Shown here piece by piece: positions 1-48,903 of a DNA stretch of 55,626 nucleotides. The stretch's first letter is position 1. Every line of letters begins with the position of its first letter. This DNA is from Planctomycetota bacterium (lineage in GTDB: Bacteria > Planctomycetota > Planctomycetia > Planctomycetales > Planctomycetaceae): NCBI GenBank assembly GCA_043778825.1, contig JAYWFM010000230.1, forward strand, positions 1 to 55,626. The letters run 5' to 3'. The notes beneath the pieces are model-generated. The model was not told the DNA's origin. It worked only from the letters and a program-made list of their open reading frames with translations, and did no database searches. The position numbers were made by a program, and so were the translations under genes.

Positions 1-222
1 GACGATCGCGCTCGCGATCGTCATGGCGTCCGATCTTGATGTCGTCGTAGTCGTAGTCGTCGCGCCATCCCATCGTGCATCTCCTGTTGCGGTTTATTAT
101 GGAACCAACTTCGCATCGGTGCAAGCGGGGCGGCGCGGAAAAGTCGTGGGAACTTTGCCGATGTTGTTTCGCTCAAGTAGTCTAAAGGCATACGGTCCCG
201 CGAACCTGGCGAGGGAGATGAG

Positions 223-3200
223 ATGCCATTTGAGAAAGTCGAAACGTCGGTCGATTTCCCCGCTGAGGAGCGCACAATCTTGCAGCTTTGGGACGAATTG
301 CAAGCCTTCGAGAAGCTGCGGGCGAAGAACCAGGGGAAGCCGAAATGGTCGTTTCTCGATGGCCCGATCACCGCGAATAATCCGATGGGCGTGCATCACG
401 CCTGGGGCCGCACTTATAAGGATGCGTATCAGCGCTACTTCGCGATGACCGGGCATGAATTGCGTTATCAGAACGGTTTCGATTGCCAGGGGCTGTGGGT
501 CGAGGTCGAGGTCGAGAAGCAGCTGAACCTCGGGACGAAGACCGCGATCGCCGAGTACGGGATCGACAAATTCGTGTGGGAGTGCAAGAAGCGCGTGCTG
601 AAGTTCGCCGCCCGCCAGACCGAGCAATCGATCCGGCTCGGCTACTGGATGGAGTGGGACGACCCGGCTCAACTGCGCGGACTGGCTTCAGCGATTGGAA
701 CAGAGCAGCAGATCACGCTGACGACCCCCAAGGGCGTCGTCGCCACCGGCACAGCGGAGCAACTCGTCGAGCAACTCGGCAACCCGGTGTGGGGCGGCAG
801 CTACTTCACGTTCAGCACCGAGAACAACGAGACGATCTGGTCGTTCCTGAAGAAGTGCCACCAGCGCGGCAAGATCTACCGAGGCCACGACGTGATGCCC
901 TGGAGCGGCCGCGCGGGGAGTGCGTACTCGCAGATGGAGATCGCGGATGGACGGAAGCTGACCACGCACCGTAGTTGCTTTGTGCGTTTCCCACTGCTGC
1001 GGGATAGTAGCGTGGGCTTTAGCCCACGCGTTGGGGAAGACAACGACTCGGCGTGGGCTAAAGCCCACGCTACGAACGAGTATCTCCTCGTCTGGACGAC
1101 CACGCCGTGGACCCTCACTTCTAACGTCGCCGCTGCGATCAACCCCGACCTCGACTACGTGAAGCTGAAAGCGAAAAAAGACGGCGCGGTCTACTACTTC
1201 GCGAAAGACAACCTCGAATTCAAACGCTTGGAGAAGGAGTTCAAGGAAGGGTTCGGTCGACCCGAGTGGGCCTGGCCGAAGGACTGCCCCAAGCTGAAGA
1301 CGATCGCCCAGATCTTCAAGGAGAGCGGCGGGTACGAGGTCGTGGGGGAGCCGATCAAGGGAGCCGAGATGGTCGGCTGGCGGTATGCCGGGCCGTTTGA
1401 TGACTTTGCGGCTCAGACAGAGAAACATCCATCGCATCACAACCCTGCAAAGGCAGTTTTCGATATCGATGCAATCGTGTCGAATCTGAAAATCAAGGGG
1501 AACACTTTTGCTGAACTTGCAGGTGAATCATGCCAGGAACGAATGGAATTTATGACGCTAGTCGTGTTGCTGCGATCCGCGTCTGCAGATGTCTTAAACT
1601 CTCAGTTGGCTCAAGATCAAAGAGCAGCCCTCTTGAATTTGGGGCAGTTTGATGAGGCTCGACTGGTCGGAAACCTCGCTGAGGCAGAAGGTTTGTTTCA
1701 GCATGAAAGCTCTACAACGATTACTGATCCGATCGTTGTTGCACAACTGCATGGTCTCCTGAACTTCAATCAACCGAAGCAGTCTGTCGACGCTGGAGAT
1801 CTGAGATATGCGATTCGTAAGACTCTGATTGAACTTCACACGTGCCTGAAATTGTTTTTGCAATCATCTCAGTCGAGTGTCGAGTGCCATCGCGTGGTGG
1901 ACGGCGGTCGCGACTTCAAAGGCACGCCGATGGTCACAGCCGGTGACGGCACCGGGATTGTGCATATTGCTCCGGGTTGCGGTGATGTGGACCATACGCT
2001 TGGCAAGAATCTGGGGCTGGCGATCATTGCCCCATTGGGCGAGGACGCGAACTTTGGCGAAGGCTTCGGCCCTTTCACAGGTCGAAATGCCACGGACCCG
2101 AAGACCGCCGACCTCGTGTTCGAGCTGATGAAGGCCAACGGTTTCTTGGTCTACGTCGAGACCTACCCCCACATCTACCCGCACTGCTGGCGGACGGGGG
2201 ATGAGCTGATCTTTCGGCTGGTGGATGAGTGGTTCATCAACATGGATTGGCGGGAGGAGATCAAGGAGGTCACGCGGGCGATTACGTGGCTGCCGGACTC
2301 GATCCAGGGGCAGGAGCGCGAGGTCGAGTGGCTGAGCCTGATGCGGGACTGGATGATCTCGAAGAAGCGGTTCTGGGGTCTGGCCCTGCCGATCTGGGTG
2401 AACCCCGCAGACCCGACCGACTTCGATGTGATGGGATCGCTGGCTGAGCTGAAGGAGCGCGCGGTCGAGGGGTGGGACGAGTTCGAGGGTCACACGCCGC
2501 ACCGTCCGTGGATCGACAAGGTGAAGATCCAGAGCCTGAAAACCGGCGCGATCCTGACCCGTGTCGAAGATGTCGGCAACCCGTGGCTCGATGCCGGGAT
2601 CGTGCCGTTCTCGACGCTGAACTACAACGGGCGCTACCCCGAATCGGCTCTCAAGTGGGAGGACTGGTTCCCGGCGGAACTTGTCACCGAATGCTTCCCC
2701 GGCCAGTTCCGCAACTGGTTTTACTCGCTGCTGAGTCTGGCCACGATGATGGGGTGGGAAGAGGGGGAGGGAGGCCTAGAGCCTATGGCCCAGGGCCTAG
2801 GGCCAGACGCCGTGGAGCAGACATTCCTGTCTGCATCTTCCGTCGATCAACCATCAACCATCAACCATCAACCCTCTTCTCCGGCCCTAGGCTCTAGGCC
2901 CTCGCCCCTAGGCCTCTCCAAACGCCCCTTCAAAACTCTCCTCGGCCATCGCCTCGTCATGAACGAGGACGGCAAGCCGATGCACAAGTCGGACGGGACC
3001 GCGATCTGGTTCGAAGAGGCTGCGGAACAACTCGGTGTCGATACGCTGCGGTGGTTGTATCTGGCTCAGAATCCGGCGCAGGATCTGCGGTTCGGGACAA
3101 GGCATGGGAAGGAGCCGGTCACGTTGCAAACCGTGGACGGCCCGATTTCGCAGACGCTTGAGGGACTCGCGACTTGCAAGGTCACGAGTACCCCTGCCGA

Positions 3201-4485
3201 CGAAGTCCGCCGTCAAGTCCTGATCCCGCTGTGGAACAGCTACTCGTTCTTCGTGAACTACGCGATCCTCGACGGGTTCGATCCGACGCTGGATGCAGTG
3301 CCGGTCAGCGAACGTCCGGAGATCGATCGCTGGATTCTGTCGAACCTCAACGTACTCATCGGCACCTGCCGCACCGAGTTCGAGAACTTCAACAGCCCCG
3401 GCGTGACGCAAGCGGCAGCGGCGTTCGTGGATGACTTGTCGAACTGGTACATCCGCCGGAATCGGAAAAGGTTCTGGAAGGCGAGGGAAGAGCGAGCCCC
3501 CGACGTAAGTCGGGGGAGTGGCTGGGACGTGGACAAGTTGGCGGCGTACCAAACGCTGTACGAGGTGTTGGTCACGCTGACAAAACTCCTGGCACCGTGC
3601 ATCCCGTTCGTCACCGAGCGGATGTTCCAGAATCTCGTCGTGGGCCACGAAAGCCCAGGGGTTGCAACCCCTGGGCTTGCGCGATCAGTGCATCTGGAGT
3701 CGTATCCCACCGTCGACGATTCTCTCATCGACGCCTCCCTCAACCACCGCATGGCTCTCGCCCAACGGATCGTCAAGATGGGGCATCGGCTCCGCGAAGA
3801 GGCCAACCAGCGCGTCCGGCAGCCGCTGGCCGAACTCAAGTACGCCTGTGCCAATCCGCAGGAGTCCGCCGAGATCGCCGCCCTCGCCGAGGTCATCGCC
3901 GACGAACTCAACGTCAAGTCGATCACCCCCGCCGACAACCTCGATGCCCTCGTCCACTACAGCTACAAACCGAACCTGAAGACCCTCGGGAAGAAGCTCG
4001 GCAAGCTGTTGGGGGCGGTCAAGGAGGCACTGACGACGGTCGACGCTGCCACTCTCGCGCCGCTGCGAAAGGGTGAGTCCGTAACCCTGACCATCGCTGG
4101 TGAGCCGGTGACTCTGGCCCCGGAAGACGTACTCATCAGCACCGAGCAAGCCAGCGACTGGGCCTGTGCCGATGACTCCGGCATCCAGATCGCCCTCTCC
4201 ACCACGCTCACCCCGCCCCTCGTCCGCGAAGGCATGGCCCGCGACATGATTCGCCAAGTGCAACAACTGCGCAAGGAGCATGACCTGAAAGAGAACGACC
4301 GGATCGCCATCCGCTGGTCGGCTGCGGCTGGCGTGGCGGAGTTCGAGACGATGGTCGCCGAATGGCAGGAGTCGATCCTGACGGAGACGCGAGCCGACCG
4401 CATCGAACAACGAGCGGTGGCCGACGGCAAACCCGTCCAAATCGGCGAGGTGGAGGTGCAGTTGAGCATTAAGAAGCTGGGATGA
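223..4485 (+). CDS. ileS: Isoleucine--tRNA ligase (type-2 IleRS), 1420 aa, lengthened by several in-frame insertions
   Basis: The ORF is uninterrupted. It has the N-terminal [20 protein letters not shown] (HIGH region), the editing-domain motifs [11 protein letters not shown] and [12 protein letters not shown], the KMSKS-like GKPMHKSDG, and RRNRKRFW in the anticodon-binding part. Confidence 0.93.
1007..1072. repeat. Class A REP-like double hairpin (GTAG-CGTGGGC-TTTA-GCCCACGC ... GCGTGGGC-TAAA-GCCCACG-CTAC), copy 1, 66 bp, in frame inside ileS
   Basis: Near-identical arms recur at 10147-10213 and 43553-43618. Each arm is itself a hairpin, and the two arms are inverted relative to each other. 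In ileS the element translates as [22 protein letters not shown]. Confidence 0.9.
1411..1885 (+). other. AT-rich in-frame insertion in the ileS editing-domain region (about 150 extra codons); boundaries approximate
   Basis: GC drops visibly by eye (about 45% against about 60% in the flanks). The block separates ...RYAGPFDDF from ...HRVVDGG...[12 protein letters not shown], which are adjacent segments in canonical IleRS. There is no stop codon despite the AT richness. Confidence 0.65.
2755..2925 (+). repeat. Palindrome-rich in-frame insertion in ileS: CCTAGG-cored short inverted repeats plus a (CAACCAT)x3 heptamer
   Basis: GGCCTAGAGCC at 2773 pairs with GGCTCTAGGCC at 2890. GGGCCTAGGGCC at 2793 pairs with GGCCCTAGGC at 2882. 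AAGAGGG at 2759 pairs with CCCTCTT at 2872. There is a central hairpin GCAGACATTCCTGTCTGC. The block translates as [17 protein letters not shown]...[29 protein letters not shown], between the conserved [12 protein letters not shown] and [15 protein letters not shown]. Confidence 0.75.
3497..3516. repeat. Perfect 8-bp stem hairpin with a GTAA loop (CCCCCGAC-GTAA-GTCGGGGG) inside ileS
   Basis: Read directly from the sequence. It encodes the extra residues APDVSRG after the conserved RRNRKRFW. Confidence 0.6.
3651..3678. repeat. Perfect 28-bp palindrome AAGCCCAGGGGTTG/CAACCCCTGGGCTT inside ileS
   Basis: The sequence equals its own reverse complement. It encodes SPGVATPGL just before the conserved SVHLESYP. 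Confidence 0.8.
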
Positions 4486-4544
4486 GACATCGCCCTTGTT
4501 GTGCAGTTCTCTCGCGTTCTGGCGAACGCAGCCACACGATCGGA

Positions 4545-5822
4545 ATGATACTTTACAGCCTGTCCAGTATCATTCCATCCGAGCGACTGCTACTCTCGTA
4601 TCATTCGCCGAACCCACGCGGGGAGTGTCACTTGCGCCCAAAAGACTTCGGAAAGTCGGCCAGCGGACAACTGGTGCGGTCCAAACTGGGGCACTGGACG
4701 TTTGTTCCGAACCCGCTCCCGCCCGCACTCGAATATGCCCCCCCGCTGGTCAACCGCATCGTCTCGGCGGAGCGGGCGCTCGGGGAGTTGGCCGGGGTCG
4801 GTCAGCTGCTGTCGAATGCCTACTTGTTGATCGGCCCGTTTCTGCGGCGTGAGGCCGTGTTGTCGAGCAAGATCGAGGGGACGGTGACTCGGCTCGACGA
4901 GTTGATGCTGTTCGAAGTCCAGCCCGATCATCCGGTGGCGGACACGGAAGACCGCCGCGAAGTGCTGAACTATGTGCAGGCCCTCGACCACGGGCTGCGG
5001 CGGTTGAAGGAGTTACCGCTCTGTTTGCGACTGCTGCGCGAGGTGCATGAGAAGCTGATGACTGGCGTGCGGGGCAGTGAGAAACGGCCGGGCCGGTTCC
5101 GCGATTGCCCGGTGGTGATCGGTCGCGAGGGGCAGAGTTATGACGAGGCCCGGTTCGTCCCGCCCGCAGCGGAACACCTGACCGAGCTCCTGAATGACTA
5201 TGAAAAATTCCTCAACAAGCCGGGTGAGCTGCCGGTCGTGGTGCAGTTGGCCCTGGCCCACTATCAGTTCGAGGCGATCCACCCCTTCATGGACGGGAAC
5301 GGTCGCATCGGGCGGCTGCTGATCACATTGATGCTGTGCGAGCGAAAATGCCTGCCCCAGCCGCTGCTGTACCTGAGTGCGTACCTGGAACGGCATGACG
5401 ACGAATACAAGGATCACCTGCTGCGGGTCAGCCAGAACGGCACGTGGACCGAGTGGATCGACTTCTTCGCCCGTGGGATCGAAGAGCAATCGCGAGACGC
5501 CGCCAACCGGGCTCGGCGGCTGCTGAACCTGCAACAGGCGTATCGCGAGCGGCTTCAGAAAGTGTCGGTGTCCTCGAACGTGCTGCTGATCGCGGATCAC
5601 TTGCTCCAGTCGCCGTATGTGACGATTCCGCTCATGCAAAAGCTGCTGGGAGTGACCCACCGGGCAGCGTCGATGAACGTGGCCAAGCTGTTGGAACAGG
5701 GGATCCTGCAAGAGACCGACCCCACGCGAAAGTCGAGCCGGGTGTTTCACGCTCCCGAGGTTTTGGCGCTGCTGAACGCCGATAAAGTCGACCCGCCCGA
5801 AGTGTCGAGCGAGTCTCCGTGA
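4545..5822 (+). CDS. Fic family protein (AMPylase-type Fido domain) with an N-terminal Fic/DOC_N-like region and a C-terminal wHTH-like tail
   Basis: It has the Fic motif HPFMDGNGRIGRLL and the inhibitory-helix-like motif SSKIEG ([ST]xxxE[GN]). The N-terminus KDFGKSASGQLVRSKLGHWTFVPNPLPP is typical of this family. The start is uncertain: ATG 4545, or TTG 4632 preceded by GGGGAG. Confidence 0.85.
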   Translation: MILYSLSSIIPSERLLLSYHSPNPRGECHLRPKDFGKSASGQLVRSKLGHWTFVPNPLPPALEYAPPLVNRIVSAERALGELAGVGQLLSNAYLLIGPFLRREAVLSSKIEGTVTRLDELMLFEVQPDHPVADTEDRREVLNYVQALDHGLRRLKELPLCLRLLREVHEKLMTGVRGSEKRPGRFRDCPVVIGREGQSYDEARFVPPAAEHLTELLNDYEKFLNKPGELPVVVQLALAHYQFEAIHPFMDGNGRIGRLLITLMLCERKCLPQPLLYLSAYLERHDDEYKDHLLRVSQNGTWTEWIDFFARGIEEQSRDAANRARRLLNLQQAYRERLQKVSVSSNVLLIADHLLQSPYVTIPLMQKLLGVTHRAASMNVAKLLEQGILQETDPTRKSSRVFHAPEVLALLNADKVDPPEVSSESP

Positions 5823-8004: not shown

Positions 8005-8131
8005 CCGAGGGATTGTCTCGGCGGAGGACCGGTTTCTCAACCGCTCGCCAGAGTCGTCAGGCCGATGCCGCAAGCCAGCCGGACGGCGTCAGCCCCGTGG
8101 CACTTATTTCATGGGCACTGGCACTGGCATT

Positions 8132-10031: not shown

Positions 10032-10146
10032 GGTCTCTCCACCTGTGTCGCAGTGAGCCGGGTCTGCGATCCGGGTCATGAGAGTGGATACGCCGTTCCT
10101 TCAGCGAGTGTTGGAACCGAGAATGACGTTTTCCAGAGAAGACGAA

Positions 10147-10213
10147 GTAGCGTGGGCTTTAGCCCACGCATCCTGGAAGATAACGCTCCCGCGTGGGCTA
10201 AAGCCCACGCTAC
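10147..10213. repeat. Class A REP-like double hairpin, copy 2 (intergenic, 67 bp)
   Basis: GTAGCGTGGGCTTTAGCCCACGC...GCGTGGGCTAAAGCCCACGCTAC. Confidence 0.9.
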
Positions 10214-11734: not shown

Positions 11735-11867
11735 AACGGACTCTCCCCACGAGCGGACGACCCAGCGCCGACCTGGGGGGCATCATATCAACGGCAGCGA
11801 GTCCGTGGCAGCGGAGGGGTAACTGCTGCCCGTGGGTTCGCACTATCACTCGGTCAAGGCTTGATTT

Positions 11868-21064: not shown

Positions 21065-21105
21065 GGGGGGGGGGATCGTTGAGGGTTGAGGGTTGAGGGT
21101 TGAGG
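21065..21105. repeat. Homopolymer G10 (C10 on the fmt strand) abutting the fmt start codon, followed by a (GTTGAGG)x4 heptamer tandem repeat
   Basis: Read directly from the sequence. A related module (G9 + CGTTGAGGGTTGAGGG) lies at 23530-23556. Confidence 0.85.
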
Positions 21106-21134
21106 GGCAGTAGGAGGACAGTTCGCGACTCCAC

Positions 21135-21310: not shown

Positions 21311-21350
21311 GACAGACTTCCGAGGTCTCGGAAGACTTCGGAAGTCTTCC
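21311..21350. repeat. Class K palindrome (GACTTCCGA(A/G)GTCTC(C/G)GAAGACTTCGGAAGTC), copy 1
   Basis: Copies lie at 32401-32438 and 46452-46486. Confidence 0.8.
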
Positions 21351-39553: not shown

Positions 39554-39592
39554 GAGTGGGGGGCCTCTGGAATGACGTGCTGGGGCGATAAT

Positions 39593-39871
39593 ACCGTAGG
39601 CGATGTCGCTCCGCGACTCGCATTTCGCACACGGGAAGACTCCTTTCCCCATGGCTCCCCTCGTCATACGTGCGGTGTTCGACGGAAGGAGTCTCAGTCG
39701 CGGAGCGACATGAGCTACGTAGGCGATGTCGCTCCGCGACTCGCATTCGTTGGGCCAACAGACTCCGCGAGTGTCGTTCACCACTGGGGGCGGTGAGTTT
39801 TCGGCAGCAAGAATCTCGGTCGCGGAGCGACCGAGCTACGTAGGCGAGTCGCTCCGCGACTCGCATTCGAG
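39593..39871. repeat. Class C REP cluster (one monomer plus two head-to-head dimers) on the 3' side of the RAYT gene
   Basis: The REP unit is GTAG-GCGATGTCGCTCCGCGACTCGCATTC, with the variant GTAG-CTCAGTCGCTCCGCGACTGAGATTC. The monomer is at 39593-39627 and the dimers at 39689-39749 and 39811-39871. Confidence 0.9.
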
Positions 39872-39878
39872 CGACTCT

Positions 39879-40613
39879 CTAATTGGCATTCGAGCCGATC
39901 TCCTCAGTCGGCCTCCTGTAGTACCGGAAACTCCCCAATTTCAGGTGTGCCTTTTCCGGATTCTCTGCAATGTATCGACGGTACTTGTCGTACTCTTCGA
40001 TACTTCGCACGAGATGGTCGAACTGTTCGACTTGCCAGAAAGAACCGGAAGCCTCTCCCTCATTTGCTGCGAGATTCTCTCGCAACCACTTGTTGATCTT
40101 TGTGGCGGTGAAATGCTTCCAGGAAGTGCATTGAGTCATCAATGAGTCTTCCTCTCGAAACGCGACGAGAAGATGTACGTGATTCGGCATCACCACGGCA
40201 TCGGTCAGAACATACCGGTCGCTATCAAAATGCAGCAAGCTGTCCATGACGATTTCCGACAGCGCTGGCTCGCGAAGGACACACGCCCCTGCGGCGGCGT
40301 CCAACTGTTCATCCCAAGCCGTGAAGAGCAACCATTGGAGGTTGCCACGCTCCACAGGCGGCAGCTGGGAGAGTGAGTGTTTCCAGTCGCCTTCGGGATC
40401 AATTTGATGTTGTTTGAGAATCTGATGCCGCTGTCGACTGAGCCGAACAAGGGCCTCTCTGGGGAGCGAATCTGCTGTCCGCCAAGTAATGAAGGCGACT
40501 GTTCCCGCTTGTGCCCAGTGGGGCAACCGCTTCCACGCGATCGTATAGTCCTGCTTCGAATCGAAGAACTGCAATCCGGTCGGAATCCTATCGAAAGAGT
40601 CTTGACCAGACAT
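39879..40613 (-). CDS. REP-associated tyrosine transposase (RAYT; IS200/IS605 Y1 HUH transposase family)
   Basis: It has the HUH motif in VVMPNHVHLLVAF and the C-terminal SFWQVEQFDHLVRSIEEYDKYRRYIAENPEKAHL, matching the RAYT pattern FWQxRFWEHxIR..DY..H..YI..NP. It is flanked on both sides by REPs. ATG 40613 was chosen because the upstream ORF is REP DNA. Confidence 0.85.
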   Translation of the reverse strand: MSGQDSFDRIPTGLQFFDSKQDYTIAWKRLPHWAQAGTVAFITWRTADSLPREALVRLSRQRHQILKQHQIDPEGDWKHSLSQLPPVERGNLQWLLFTAWDEQLDAAAGACVLREPALSEIVMDSLLHFDSDRYVLTDAVVMPNHVHLLVAFREEDSLMTQCTSWKHFTATKINKWLRENLAANEGEASGSFWQVEQFDHLVRSIEEYDKYRRYIAENPEKAHLKLGSFRYYRRPTEEIGSNAN

Positions 40614-40647
40614 GCCGACACTCCGAGTCGGGAGTATTGGGACGGGC

Positions 40648-40800
40648 GGAATGCGAGTCGCGGAGCGACATCGCCTACGTAGCTCAGTCGCTCCGCGACT
40701 GAGATTCCTTCCGTAAGTCATCTGTCGAATCCAGAAGGAAGCCTCTGTGAATCCGCCTTCCCACGCACGGAATGCGAGTCGCGGAGCGACATCGCCTACG
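40648..40800. repeat. Class C REP cluster (one dimer 40648-40708 plus one monomer 40769-40800) on the 5' side of the RAYT gene
   Basis: GGAATGCGAGTCGCGGAGCGACATCGCCTACGTAGCTCAGTCGCTCCGCGACTGAGATTCC. The monomer overlaps the gltA stop codon. Confidence 0.9.
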
Positions 40801-42082
40801 AACGGTTGCTGATCGGCACGAAGTCGCGGGCTCCGTGGCCGGTGTAGATCTGGCGCGGACGGGCGATCTTTTGTTCGCTGTCTTCCAGCAACTCCGCCCA
40901 CTGGGCCAGCCAGCCGACCGTGCGGGGGATCGCGAACAGAACCGGGAACATCGTCTCCGGCAGGCCCATTGCCTGGTAGATCAGGCCCGAGTAGAAGTCG
41001 ACGTTCGGGTAGAGCTTGCGCTTGATGAAGTACTCGTCGTTGAGGGCGATCTTCTCCAACTCCAGGGCAATCTCGAGCAGCGGATTGCGGCCCGTCACAG
41101 CGAACACCTCATCGGCGGTCCGCTTGATGATCTTGGCCCGTGGGTCGTAATTCTTGTAAACCCGGTGGCCGAACCCCATCAGCCGGCACTTGCCAGTCTT
41201 GACCTGCTCGATGAAGGCCGGCACGTTCTTCACGTGGCCAATCTCGGCCAGCATCTTGAGGACCGCCTCGTTCGCCCCGCCATGCAACGGGCCATACAGT
41301 GCCGCCGCCGCTCCCGCCAGAGCACTATACGGATCGGCCTCGGAAGACCCGATCGCCCGCATGGCATTGGTCGAGCAGTTCTGCTCGTGGTCGGCATGCA
41401 GGATGAACAGAATGTCGAGGGCCTTGGCCAGCACCGGGTGCGGCTCGTGCGTCGCGTCCATCATCTTGAACATCATCGACAGAAAGTTGCCGGTGTAGCT
41501 CAGCTTGTTGTTCGGGTAGTTGTAGGGATACCCCTGGCAATGCCGGTACGAGAACGCCGCAATCGTCGGAGCCTTGGCAATCAGGCGGCAAATCTGCTTG
41601 TTCCGCGAGGCCGGGTCGCGGACGTTCTTGGCCTCGGGGTAGAAGGTCGACAACCCCGCCACCGTGCTGATGAACATCCCCATCGGATGGGCGTCGTAAC
41701 GAAACCCCTCCATCAGATGCTTGACGTTCTCATGCACGACCGTGTGTCGCTGGATCGACTGCTCCCAGTCCTGCAACTGGTCGCAATTCGGCAACTCCCC
41801 GTTCAGCAGCAGGTAGGCCGTCTCCAGAAACGTGCTGTGCTCGGCGAGCTGCTCGATCGGGTAGCCCCGGTAGCGAAGGATGCCGACATCGCCGTCGATT
41901 TCGGTGATACTGCTGCGAGTCGAGGCGGTGTTGAGGAACCCCGGGTCGTAGCTCATCATCCCGAATTCGGCGTCGGTCACTTTGATCTGCCGCAGATCCG
42001 CGGCGCGGATGGTCCCGTCCGTAATCGGGAGGGTGTAGGTTTTCCCGGTTCGGTTGTCGGTGACTGTCAGAGTGTCCGCCAT
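40796..42082 (-). CDS. gltA: Citrate synthase (type II)
   Basis: It has GFGHRVYKNYDPRA, LHADHEQNCSTN and GPLHGGANE. ATG 42082 is preceded by AGGAAAGG; an in-frame GTG lies at 42106. Confidence 0.92.
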   Translation of the reverse strand: MADTLTVTDNRTGKTYTLPITDGTIRAADLRQIKVTDAEFGMMSYDPGFLNTASTRSSITEIDGDVGILRYRGYPIEQLAEHSTFLETAYLLLNGELPNCDQLQDWEQSIQRHTVVHENVKHLMEGFRYDAHPMGMFISTVAGLSTFYPEAKNVRDPASRNKQICRLIAKAPTIAAFSYRHCQGYPYNYPNNKLSYTGNFLSMMFKMMDATHEPHPVLAKALDILFILHADHEQNCSTNAMRAIGSSEADPYSALAGAAAALYGPLHGGANEAVLKMLAEIGHVKNVPAFIEQVKTGKCRLMGFGHRVYKNYDPRAKIIKRTADEVFAVTGRNPLLEIALELEKIALNDEYFIKRKLYPNVDFYSGLIYQAMGLPETMFPVLFAIPRTVGWLAQWAELLEDSEQKIARPRQIYTGHGARDFVPISNRS

Positions 42083-43527: not shown

Positions 43528-44471
43528 TCGACGTGACAGACGAATCTCTCCGTAGCGTGGGCTTTAGCCCACGCAAGAGTGTTCTCGTCCACAACTCGTG
43601 GGCTAAAGCCCACGCTACGCGCACGTGGAATCGTTCGTCCCGACTGGCACTGTTGCTCCTGCTCCTGTTCGCAGCTTCCCACACGGCGTTCGCTCAAGAC
43701 CCGCCAGCCGAGGACACCGCTCCTACGGAGGCCCCCGCCGACCCCGTGGTCAACATCACCGACAAGTGGACAATCCTCGTCCATCCGGGCCGACCCCGAC
43801 CCGGCATCGTCGAGTTCACCGACAAGTCACCCATCCAGAATGTCACCGAGTTCAAACTCCTTGGGCCGTCCGTGGGGCATCCCTTCTGCCTCGGGGAGTT
43901 CATCGTCAATGGCCGCTGGGCCACCGCGCAAGGGGTGGTCCAGGTCGTCGAGGGCACCAACACACTCCTCTCCCTGGCCACAGCCGACCAGTTCGAACTG
44001 GAGGGGATCATCCACCAGGAAGGTTCGGGAGGCTGGCTGATGCTGCTGGGTTGGAACCAGGGTCACGGCTATTCGTTGTCGAACGTCTCTCTCATCAAAA
44101 GCGGGTCTCCGTGGTTCGTGTGCGAGTACCGAGCCGCCGAGGCGATCGCCCTCACCAATAACGAGGTCAAGCAGTTTGACTGGAAGGGCGATCAACCGTT
44201 TCGCATGATCGTCAAAGACAAGCTGTTGTCGGTGACAGTCGGCCAGACCGCGATCGTCGAGGAGTACCCGCTGGACAACTACACTGCCGGTCAGATTTTT
44301 CTGGGGACGTACGACACGCGGCTGAGTGCCCGTCCGGTGAAGGTGAAATCCCTGCGCATCCGAGCCCTGGTGGACAAACCGGGAAAGGCCGAGAAGCCCA
44401 AGCAGGCGGCCCCCCCCGCTAAACAGGGAGAGGCGAAACCCAAACCCAAACCCAAACCCGCAGTACCGTAA
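43524..44471 (+). CDS. Secreted hypothetical protein, possibly a concanavalin-A-like/DUF1080-like jelly roll, with a Lys/Pro-rich tail
   Basis: The ATG overlaps the transporter stop (ATGA). It has a signal peptide (RLALLLLLLFAASHTAFA). The FELEG...GGWLMLLGW...GQIFLGTY...VKVKSLRI pattern resembles DUF1080-type domains only weakly. The true start may lie downstream of the repeat. Confidence 0.7.
   Translation: MIDVTDESLRSVGFSPRKSVLVHNSWAKAHATRTWNRSSRLALLLLLLFAASHTAFAQDPPAEDTAPTEAPADPVVNITDKWTILVHPGRPRPGIVEFTDKSPIQNVTEFKLLGPSVGHPFCLGEFIVNGRWATAQGVVQVVEGTNTLLSLATADQFELEGIIHQEGSGGWLMLLGWNQGHGYSLSNVSLIKSGSPWFVCEYRAAEAIALTNNEVKQFDWKGDQPFRMIVKDKLLSVTVGQTAIVEEYPLDNYTAGQIFLGTYDTRLSARPVKVKSLRIRALVDKPGKAEKPKQAAPPAKQGEAKPKPKPKPAVP
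43553..43618. repeat. Class A REP-like double hairpin, copy 3 (66 bp), inside the 5' end of the next ORF
   Basis: GTAGCGTGGGCTTTAGCCCACGC...GTGGGCTAAAGCCCACGCTAC. Confidence 0.9.
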
Positions 44472-48745: not shown

Positions 48746-48811
48746 ACACGTCTCCTGGCTGGTGGAATGTCTGCGGGGATTATTCCAGAACGGGTATGCG
48801 TGGGCAATTCG

Positions 48812-48903
48812 CCTGTAGCTCACGTCGCTCCGCGACTGAGATTCCAGGAGTGGCGTCGGGGGAGACTGGCGGAATGCGAGTCGCGGAGCGACATCGCCTA
48901 CGT
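48812..48903. repeat. Two class C REP monomers, tails facing, separated by about 25 nt
   Basis: CCTGTAGCTCACGTCGCTCCGCGACTGAGATTCC ... GGAATGCGAGTCGCGGAGCGACATCGCCTACGT. Confidence 0.88.

Follow-up and report, generated by a model that had tools for sequence, protein, structure and literature searches.

We analyzed a 55,626-nt stretch of DNA (55.6 kb; hereafter, the window) from contig JAYWFM010000230.1 of a bacterium of the family Planctomycetaceae (assembly GCA_043778825.1), in which the IleRS gene ileS is interrupted by an AT-rich, in-frame block within its CP1 editing domain. The block is probably a translated helical cassette, one allele at an intragenic insertion hot spot in CP1 whose contents are swapped by homologous recombination. 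In the mechanism that we propose, the ancestral loop would be a short, conserved stretch of 46 residues, and in variant loops its middle would have been replaced by an acidic, all-helical domain of 107-260 aa or by shorter dispersed-repeat pieces. The cassette would be read through by the ribosome and kept in the protein, where it would most likely fold as an independent helical bundle projecting from CP1, leaving the synthetic and editing sites intact. Alleles would be replaced wholesale by homologous recombination, with conserved ileS on both sides serving as arms, and would not be derived by point mutation; wholesale replacement would therefore leave close relatives with unrelated cassettes, or with none.

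The flanks RYAGPFDDF and HRVVDGG were confirmed on either side of the block. In nucleotide comparisons with eight relatives, identity was 85-92% in the left flank and ~70-86% in the right flank, and homology stopped at window positions ~1403-1416 and resumed at ~1879-1888. These breakpoints coincide with the edges of the block at 1411-1885 that a preliminary description, made from the sequence alone, had placed inside the ileS editing domain, and they identify it as a non-orthologous insertion within CP1, as had been proposed there.

The site was then examined in 120 Planctomycetaceae IleRS proteins and 80 genome loci, with loop states counted over 175 sequences (WIN denotes the window's ileS or IleRS, L-numbers denote genome loci or contigs, and P-numbers denote IleRS proteins). 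Metagenome-assembled genomes from glacier-fed streams and lakes, L001-L009 among them, belong to the clade of WIN. The standard loop comprised 46 residues between GWxYxGPF and GTGxVH (DDLPAQQQPGGYP...GVSCHRVIDGGRD). Approximately 40 of the 175 IleRS had at least 100 extra aa (107-260 aa) at exactly the CP1 loop that is occupied in WIN, and further Planctomycetaceae IleRS had 30-90 extra residues at the same loop. All of the ~40 long variants were in frame, with lengths in multiples of three, and free of stop codons. The distribution of the inserts on the core tree was very patchy. Within a core p-distance of 0.15 of WIN, at least six loop states were found: no insert (P0004, P0006, P0007, and P0011), a Gly-rich 47-aa loop (P0002 and P0010), the WIN cassette (WIN and P0001), a family-A cassette (L001), a family-B cassette (P0003, P0005, and P0013), and another orphan (P0008). 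In the alignment of planctomycete IleRS, the block was thus not a segment conserved across the order with normal composition, and the preliminary view of it as an insertion held. Two contigs of metagenome-assembled genomes, L017 and L060, had an ileS frameshifted near a short CP1 loop, not in a long insert; these frameshifts were taken to be assembly errors and not untranslated inserts.

Replacement of loop contents was evident between close relatives. WIN and its closest non-identical relative, L001, differed at 10% of core residues and 34% of four-fold sites (K4 = 0.45), and their cassettes showed no similarity by blastn or Smith-Waterman alignment, whereas neutral orthologous DNA would keep ~66% identity. 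Unrelated contents between conserved arms were found in comparisons of WIN with L001, L002, and L008, and of L025 with L037, two Planctopirus loci with 95% identical cores; some cassettes could not be aligned with each other even though the cores of their hosts were 92-95% identical. Sequence comparison indicates that cassettes common to two hosts are not fast-evolving, and P0003 and P0005 had cassettes that were 95% identical and cores that were 91% identical. The L001 cassette was closest to that of P0030, whose core differed by 27%. Between L002 and L082, four-fold divergence was 0.31 in the core and 0.02 in the cassette, and the low-divergence tract ran from aa 321 to ~530, covering the cassette together with 85 codons of the left flank. 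Between L025 and L037, divergence was 3-9% in the flanks, 52-71% in the cassette, 27-43% in the next ~50 codons, and 1-9% thereafter. As read from these alignments, both patterns are what homologous recombination through conserved ileS arms produces. Divergence profiles were patchy along the gene, and ileS was a mosaic in general.

The composition of the block was clearly deviant. Its GC content was 0.469, compared with a window mean of 0.621 (standard deviation [sd] 0.032, in 475-nt windows); the lowest-GC 475-nt window of all 55.6 kb lay inside the block, and the 0.04% of windows that were equally low all overlapped it. Per-25-codon GC content at third codon positions (GC3) in the ileS frame was 0.40-0.48 in the block and mostly 0.72-1.0 in the rest, with lows of 0.56-0.68 in a few variable segments. 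GC1/GC2/GC3 were 0.58/0.36/0.46 in the block and 0.62/0.43/0.80 in the remaining ileS, so that the coding pattern was normal and the deviation was mainly synonymous. Among 1096 windows of 150 codons from 30 open reading frames (ORFs) of the window, mean GC3 was 0.794 ± 0.067; the value of 0.46 in the block was 5 sd under this mean, and the 12 lowest windows all lay within the block. Non-coding DNA of the window had a GC content of ~0.59, and the block was lower still. The contrast that the preliminary description had estimated by eye, and had proposed to check by sliding-window GC and codon usage, was therefore significant.

The length of the open frame was less informative. The block was open for 154 codons, with a probability of ~2e-4 at its own composition, which agrees with the earlier remark that ~150 open codons are unexpected by chance; nevertheless, openness says little by itself because only open insertions survive in a presumably essential gene. 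The open frame was that of ileS only, the other two sense frames reaching 41 codons. An antisense ORF of 89 codons, also pointed out earlier, does exist but is not unusual (p = 0.24; Table 1). A promoter and terminator scan of 1200-2100 found none inside the block.

Low GC3 proved to be common to cassettes of this class. For all 22 distinct cassettes with DNA in hand, GC3 was below that of the host core (means 0.48 and 0.75; paired t = -21.5), while GC1 and GC2 were nearly normal; across cassettes, GC1 > GC3 > GC2. Host GC3 ranged from 0.64 to 0.82, and cassette GC3 tracked it weakly (r = 0.44). GC3 was 0.79 in invariant core columns, 0.73 in variable core columns, 0.59 in lineage-specific segments elsewhere in ileS, and 0.47 in the long CP1 cassettes. 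Because family-A cassettes, though diverged to 13-29% identity, show the same offset in hosts of high GC3, low GC3 is read here as an equilibrium property and not as the trace of a foreign donor; it appears to be a lasting feature of these segments rather than a mark of their age. As to its cause, AT-biased mutation may be unopposed in cassettes, which would escape whatever keeps GC3 high in the alignable core. One candidate for that force is codon or accuracy selection, which would be weak in cassettes; another is GC-biased heteroduplex repair, which would be impossible across non-homologous cassettes. GC-biased gene conversion in bacteria has reportedly been set out as a hypothesis. Relaxed selection alone does not fully account for cassettes having a lower GC content than intergenic DNA.

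Several cassette families were recognized. Family A consisted of 16 cassettes in one family by hidden Markov model (HMM), and family B of five. The cassettes of L014 and L078 were clearly related, and that of L011 joined them weakly (E = 0.012-0.023), forming a tentative family C. A central motif, sFxElxxxLxxLGLxxxxxxW..L, located between helices 4 and 5, recurred in many cassettes outside family A (Fisher p = 8e-8), and the Planctopirus cassettes matched family A with an hhalign probability of 85%. AlphaFold2 (AF2), given a 13-sequence family-A alignment, predicted a six-helix domain with a predicted local distance difference test score (pLDDT) of 85 and a predicted template modeling score of 0.76, with covarying positions. 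A long C-terminal amphipathic helix closed every family-A cassette. The nearly invariant residues of the family were only P, L, and W, which are structural, and no conserved polar or catalytic residues were seen. A Foldseek search of the PDB with the family-A model returned nothing at E <= 1e-3 (best 0.29), the matches being generic helical bundles with TM-scores of ~0.2-0.4. Thirty-seven of 39 cassettes were net acidic, which we take as an argument against an RNA-binding role. Ser, Leu, and Gln were enriched and Gly, Pro, Met, and Trp depleted, with amino acid usage otherwise ordinary.

The WIN cassette itself had no detectable relative. A phmmer search of 1.84e9 representative proteins gave no matches; Pfam, PHROGs, PADLOC, and NCBIfam held no family for it, Pfam giving none at E <= 1 for a 161-aa segment; the phage and plasmid collections, searched in distant mode, left it unmatched; scans of IMG/VR and the JGI metagenomes with the cassette peptide found nothing; and a diverged copy of the allele was absent from every collection searched. 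Word-indexed protein searches, with either the cassette alone or the family-A alignment, were uninformative and not negative, as the known carriers P0001 and P0029 were also missed. The earlier impression of a helical peptide with no recognizable motif was supported, the AF2 model being all-helical, at low confidence. WIN shares with family A the insertion point, a six-helix architecture (low confidence), and a long C-terminal helix running into ...CHRV. The best match to the central motif, AALLNLG, fell between predicted helices 4 and 5, where it is expected, but was weak (p = 0.32), and the cassette aligned colinearly over its full length with the equal-length cassette of L011 (z = 6.4), which is suggestive only. 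It is an orphan allele of compatible architecture, and it may be either a helical-family member that has diverged to an extreme degree or a separately captured segment.

Several of these results, together with others, weigh against our interpretation. In the AF2 model of aa 180-720, the WIN cassette was predicted as six helices with pLDDT of only 38-59, except in the last helix. Against the family-A HMM it scored E = 0.44 by hmmsearch, and hhalign gave a probability of 0.3%, or 4.8% when it was paired with L011; neither HMM iteration, the motif HMM, nor hhalign linked it significantly to families A, B, C, or D. Calling it one allele of a family would accordingly draw only on its position and its modeled architecture. 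Whereas tracts were found for other alleles, no recombination tract was shown for that of WIN, whose sole other copy, in L081, shows no difference anywhere in the cassette. A single allele pair was informative, with 5 amino-acid and 1-2 synonymous changes (dN/dS, the ratio of non-synonymous to synonymous substitution rates, ~1, from 7 changes only), which suggests, as far as 7 changes can, that cassette function is not strongly selected. A cassette GC of 0.47, below the 0.59 of non-coding DNA, is not predicted by simple relaxed selection. Finally, it is we who infer that the cassette is translated and retained in the protein; independent folding of the WIN allele is likewise deduced. The cassette is probably dispensable for catalysis, because near relatives are without any insert.

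Recent acquisition would account for part of the evidence. Young, unameliorated coding DNA from a low-GC donor, captured illegitimately or on a recombined ileS fragment, would be expected to look much like the block, whose GC of 0.47 and GC3 of 0.46, with normal GC1 and GC2, resemble coding DNA of a genome of ~47% GC; moreover, the block lies below the intergenic GC of the window, is an orphan with sharp homology breakpoints, and belongs to a class of cassettes that do move between lineages. We consider this unlikely, as the same offset occurs in all 22 hosts, including a family at 13-29% identity in which amelioration is evidently absent, cassette GC3 correlates only weakly with that of the host, other lineage-specific ileS segments are depressed too, and no donor was found among the proteins, phage and plasmid records, IMG/VR, or JGI metagenomes. 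The preliminary suggestion of horizontally acquired DNA therefore survives in part: cassettes other than that of WIN move in recombination tracts, but the GC contrast is no sign of recent foreign origin (22/22 with low GC3). Mobile elements are often AT-richer than their hosts, which speaks for a domesticated insertion derived from a miniature inverted-repeat transposable element (MITE) or an insertion sequence, lodged in frame in a permissive loop like a longer Rickettsia palindromic element (RPE). The same gene does contain a true in-frame dispersed repeat at 1006-1074, dispersed repeats make up the mid-sized loops of other lineages at this position, and in-frame MITE fusions are documented (PMC10969869). 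For the block, such an origin is highly improbable. Apart from the same-strain L081 itself, blastn and tblastx found no second copy in the window, the extra 10 kb of L081, or 84 loci; the best pair of terminal inverted repeats (14 nt, 79%) was unconvincing and lay ~35 nt inside each boundary; and no flanking direct repeat indicated a target duplication. A MITE- or RPE-like repeat was rejected on the terminal features, copy number having been assessed in the sequence at hand and not in a complete genome. Codon-position periodicity and the helical prediction resemble a protein domain, and related long cassettes gave a confident fold with covarying positions. The domesticated mobile insertion considered in the preliminary description is thus not supported for the block, and it holds for the smaller segment at 1006-1074.

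An intervening sequence removed after transcription or translation, i.e., an intein, a group I or II intron, or a translational bypass, would lie in frame where an essential gene is conserved, would occur sporadically, and would deviate in composition; these features of the block are the classic intein/intron signature. An intein was rejected: no Hint, intein, or LAGLIDADG match was obtained from Pfam at E <= 1, the AF2 model was all-alpha and not a beta-rich Hint fold, and the junctions ...DDFAAQ|TEKH... and ...LQSSQS|SVECH were judged to be without the residues of an intein, namely Cys or Ser at +1 and a terminal His-Asn. Group I and II introns were rejected as well, since Rfam cmscan of 1200-2100 on both strands with 4227 families returned none at E <= 1, and the ~40 variants at the site without exception keep the frame and contain no stop codons, a property that introns do not require. 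The earlier suggestion of a segment lost from the RNA or the protein is accordingly very improbable. A functional accessory domain under diversifying or balancing selection, binding a strain-specific partner or shielding the enzyme from a toxin, an antibiotic, or a phage factor, would agree with the extreme allelic diversity among close relatives, a folded domain kept in many lineages, the mostly non-synonymous changes in the one informative allele pair, and the consistently acidic cassettes (37/39). IleRS is a known antibiotic target, and the NCBIfam MupA and MupB models match WIN IleRS. We nonetheless regard this as very doubtful: the close relatives P0004, P0006, and P0007 are without a cassette, in family A, neither polar nor catalytic residues were seen to be conserved, there is no evident partner gene, defense families were unmatched, and a dN/dS near 1 is equally predicted by neutrality. 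Quite unlikely, too, is the broader idea that the CP1 loop is an intragenic hypervariable locus under diversifying or balancing selection, with cassettes acting as strain-specific interaction or decoy surfaces on an essential translation enzyme, whether toward a toxin, an antibiotic, or a phage factor aimed at IleRS or in assembly with variable partners. If this were true, cassette exchange by recombination would be adaptive, and the uniformly low GC3 would reflect that GC-biased repair does not act on non-homologous DNA; the mutational equilibrium of high-GC bacteria could then be read from the cassettes.

The host gene encodes a type-2 IleRS, with the class I core, CP1 containing the Thr-rich peptide and GTGxVH, the anticodon-binding domain, and DUF5915; Pfam matched tRNA-synt_1 (PF00133), Anticodon_1 (PF08264), and DUF5915 (PF19302). 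The Thr-rich peptide WTTTPWT corresponds to the established editing motif of CP1 in IleRS. The best NCBIfam model, TIGR00392, scored 571.5 bits against a cut-off of 621.4, in a match split into five stretches. Insertions splitting the match are probably the reason for the shortfall, and the sub-cut-off score would probably explain source names such as "class I tRNA ligase family protein". The nearest solved structures were Thermus thermophilus IleRS (1ILE) and the IleRS chains 8C8U-8C9D. The features of the gene are listed in Table 1.

Table 1 Positions of features in the window's ileS and of repeats that build CP1 loops in other lineages.
Feature	Position	Strand	Basis or remark
ileS, type-2 (eukaryote-like) IleRS with several lineage-specific segments	223..4485	+	Single ORF, 1420 aa; Pfam, TIGR00392, 1ILE alignment
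68-nt double-hairpin dispersed repeat D3 (AGTAGCGTGGGCTTTAGCCCACGC...GCGTGGGCTAAAGCCCACGCTAC), translated in frame, codons 262-284	1006..1074	+	Other variable CP1 loop of ileS
WTTTPWT, Thr-rich CP1 peptide, 5' of the cassette	1093..1113	+	Aligned to TTTPW of 1ILE
Conserved left arm, end of nucleotide homology to relatives	1375..1413	+	blastn against eight relatives; motif in most of 120 homologues
Putative cassette, orphan in-frame insert, codons 398-551 (154 aa, 462 nt)	1414..1875	+	GC 0.47, GC3 0.46; breakpoints against eight relatives
Antisense 89-codon ORF, judged to be chance	1594..1863	-	Longest antisense open stretch matched in 24% of sense-preserving codon shuffles
LLNLG, possible remnant of the helix-LGL-helix motif	1630..1644	+	Best motif-HMM match, empirical p = 0.32, not significant alone
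Last predicted cassette helix, aa 524-547	1792..1863	+	AF2 model residues 345-368, pLDDT 74-79; only part with fair confidence
Conserved right arm, restart of homology	1876..1947	+	blastn against eight relatives; part common to the insert-less P0004, P0006, and P0007
GTGIVH, conserved CP1 editing-domain motif, 24 codons 3' of the cassette	1948..1965	+	Aligned to DGTGIVHQAP, 1ILE residues 313-322
Loop repeat in L041	L041 7204-7323		Compared with L041 6770-6860
Loop repeat in L061	L061 7195-7257		Compared with window 21078-21110, L002, L008, L046, and L082

L081 represents the same strain: over the 14 kb that start at window position 334, the identity is 99.83%, and the block itself shows no differences. 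Window positions 1-333 and L081 9700-10105 were completely divergent, and the upstream genes differed. All 28 amino-acid differences between the IleRS of WIN and L081 lay within residues 4-78, in the first ~85 codons, and the 5' end of ileS seems to contain a recombination breakpoint. Directly 3' of ileS, an ORF at 4482-5822 (+) overlaps the ileS stop codon; its counterpart in L081 encodes a Fic_N/Fic domain protein and is followed by a leucine-rich-repeat protein.

Besides the long cassettes, dispersed repeats contributed to the variable loops of ileS. D3 had intergenic copies at 10146-10213 (87%) and 43551-43618 (75%). In other lineages, the mid-sized loops at the main CP1 site consisted of short dispersed repeats, translating, for example, as PSTLNLQPS or APGDSPGA, and such repeats recurred in unrelated genes as well as in the gene's other variable loop. 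The idea of a permissive loop is supported by the in-frame translation of dispersed repeats, both elsewhere in ileS and at the CP1 site itself. A segment at WIN aa 876-900 (window ~2848-2920) was apparently of the same dispersed-repeat kind. Planctomycetaceae IleRS gathered inserts at several sites, their lengths ranging from 1182 to 1623 aa. A FUR-like winged-helix segment was present around the anticodon-binding region in P0078 (aa 1177-1248) and P0114 (aa 1080-1138), with 31.7 and 27.1 bits against a Pfam cut-off of 23.1, and a PP-binding-like segment (25.5 bits, cut-off 20.8) occupied aa 276-314 of P0114, taken as the first variable CP1 loop. The window contained several other families of palindromic dispersed repeats, 40-75 nt in length: D1/D2 at 8124, 18689, 20030, 47409, 48969, and 55578; D4/D5 at 39578-40801, 46544, and 48797-48903; D6 at 11865 and 54920; and D7 at 21313, 32401, and 46451. 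By rough ORF calls, D1/D2 and D4-D7 lay mostly between or at the ends of ORFs. The palindromic repeats suggest a genome rich in MITEs or repetitive extragenic palindromic (REP) sequences.

If the cassette interpretation is correct, one proofreading-domain loop of an essential enzyme acts like a cassette locus for dozens of unrelated or barely related helical modules. The site would then amount to a natural test of an editing domain's tolerance for foreign polypeptide, and it may show how new protein domains arise and spread inside essential genes. The shared synonymous GC deficit would make it a test bed for the upkeep of high GC3, by codon selection or by biased gene conversion. Cassettes are carried by the cultured strains Planctopirus hydrillae JC280, Planctomycetaceae bacterium SH248, and Planctomicrobium sp. 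SH664, and experiments are therefore feasible. A literature search for such insertions in planctomycete IleRS gave no relevant reports.

Domain insertions in aminoacyl-tRNA synthetases (aaRSs) are known as stable lineage markers. Like the appended or inserted domains of aaRSs (e.g., NF040702, a GNAT-containing IleRS) and the sequence insertions known in bacterial RNA polymerase, the CP1 cassette is an in-frame and probably self-folding surface-loop module in an essential enzyme; most homologues lack it, and the catalytic motifs that flank it are intact. Those insertions, however, are stable, lineage-conserved, and host-like in composition, whereas the CP1 site has unalignable alleles, variable presence, recombination, and depressed GC3; cassette polymorphism and the uniform synonymous GC deficit are what is unusual in relation to known aaRS insertion modules. 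With inteins, the cassette shares an in-frame position at a conserved site of an essential gene, sporadic occurrence, and distinct composition, but it has no Hint fold, splice-junction residues, or homing endonuclease and is expected to stay in the mature protein. RPEs and other MITEs that form in-frame fusions with host ORFs (see the review PMC10969869) likewise add in-frame DNA to permissive loops, as do the ileS repeat at 1006-1074 and the repeat-derived CP1 loops. The 462-nt block differs from them in being single-copy in the available sequence, lacking notable terminal repeats, being ~3x longer than an RPE, and having domain-like codon structure and predicted helices. A further parallel lies outside the aaRSs. 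In the minimal mobile elements of Neisseria, alternative unrelated cassettes occupy a fixed position between conserved flanks and are exchanged by homologous recombination. The CP1 site has in common with them conserved arms, unrelated contents, transfer through flank homology, and tracts that include the flanks (in alleles other than that of WIN); the Neisseria elements, however, are whole genes located between genes, whereas the CP1 cassette lies in frame within a gene and encodes a portion of an essential polypeptide.

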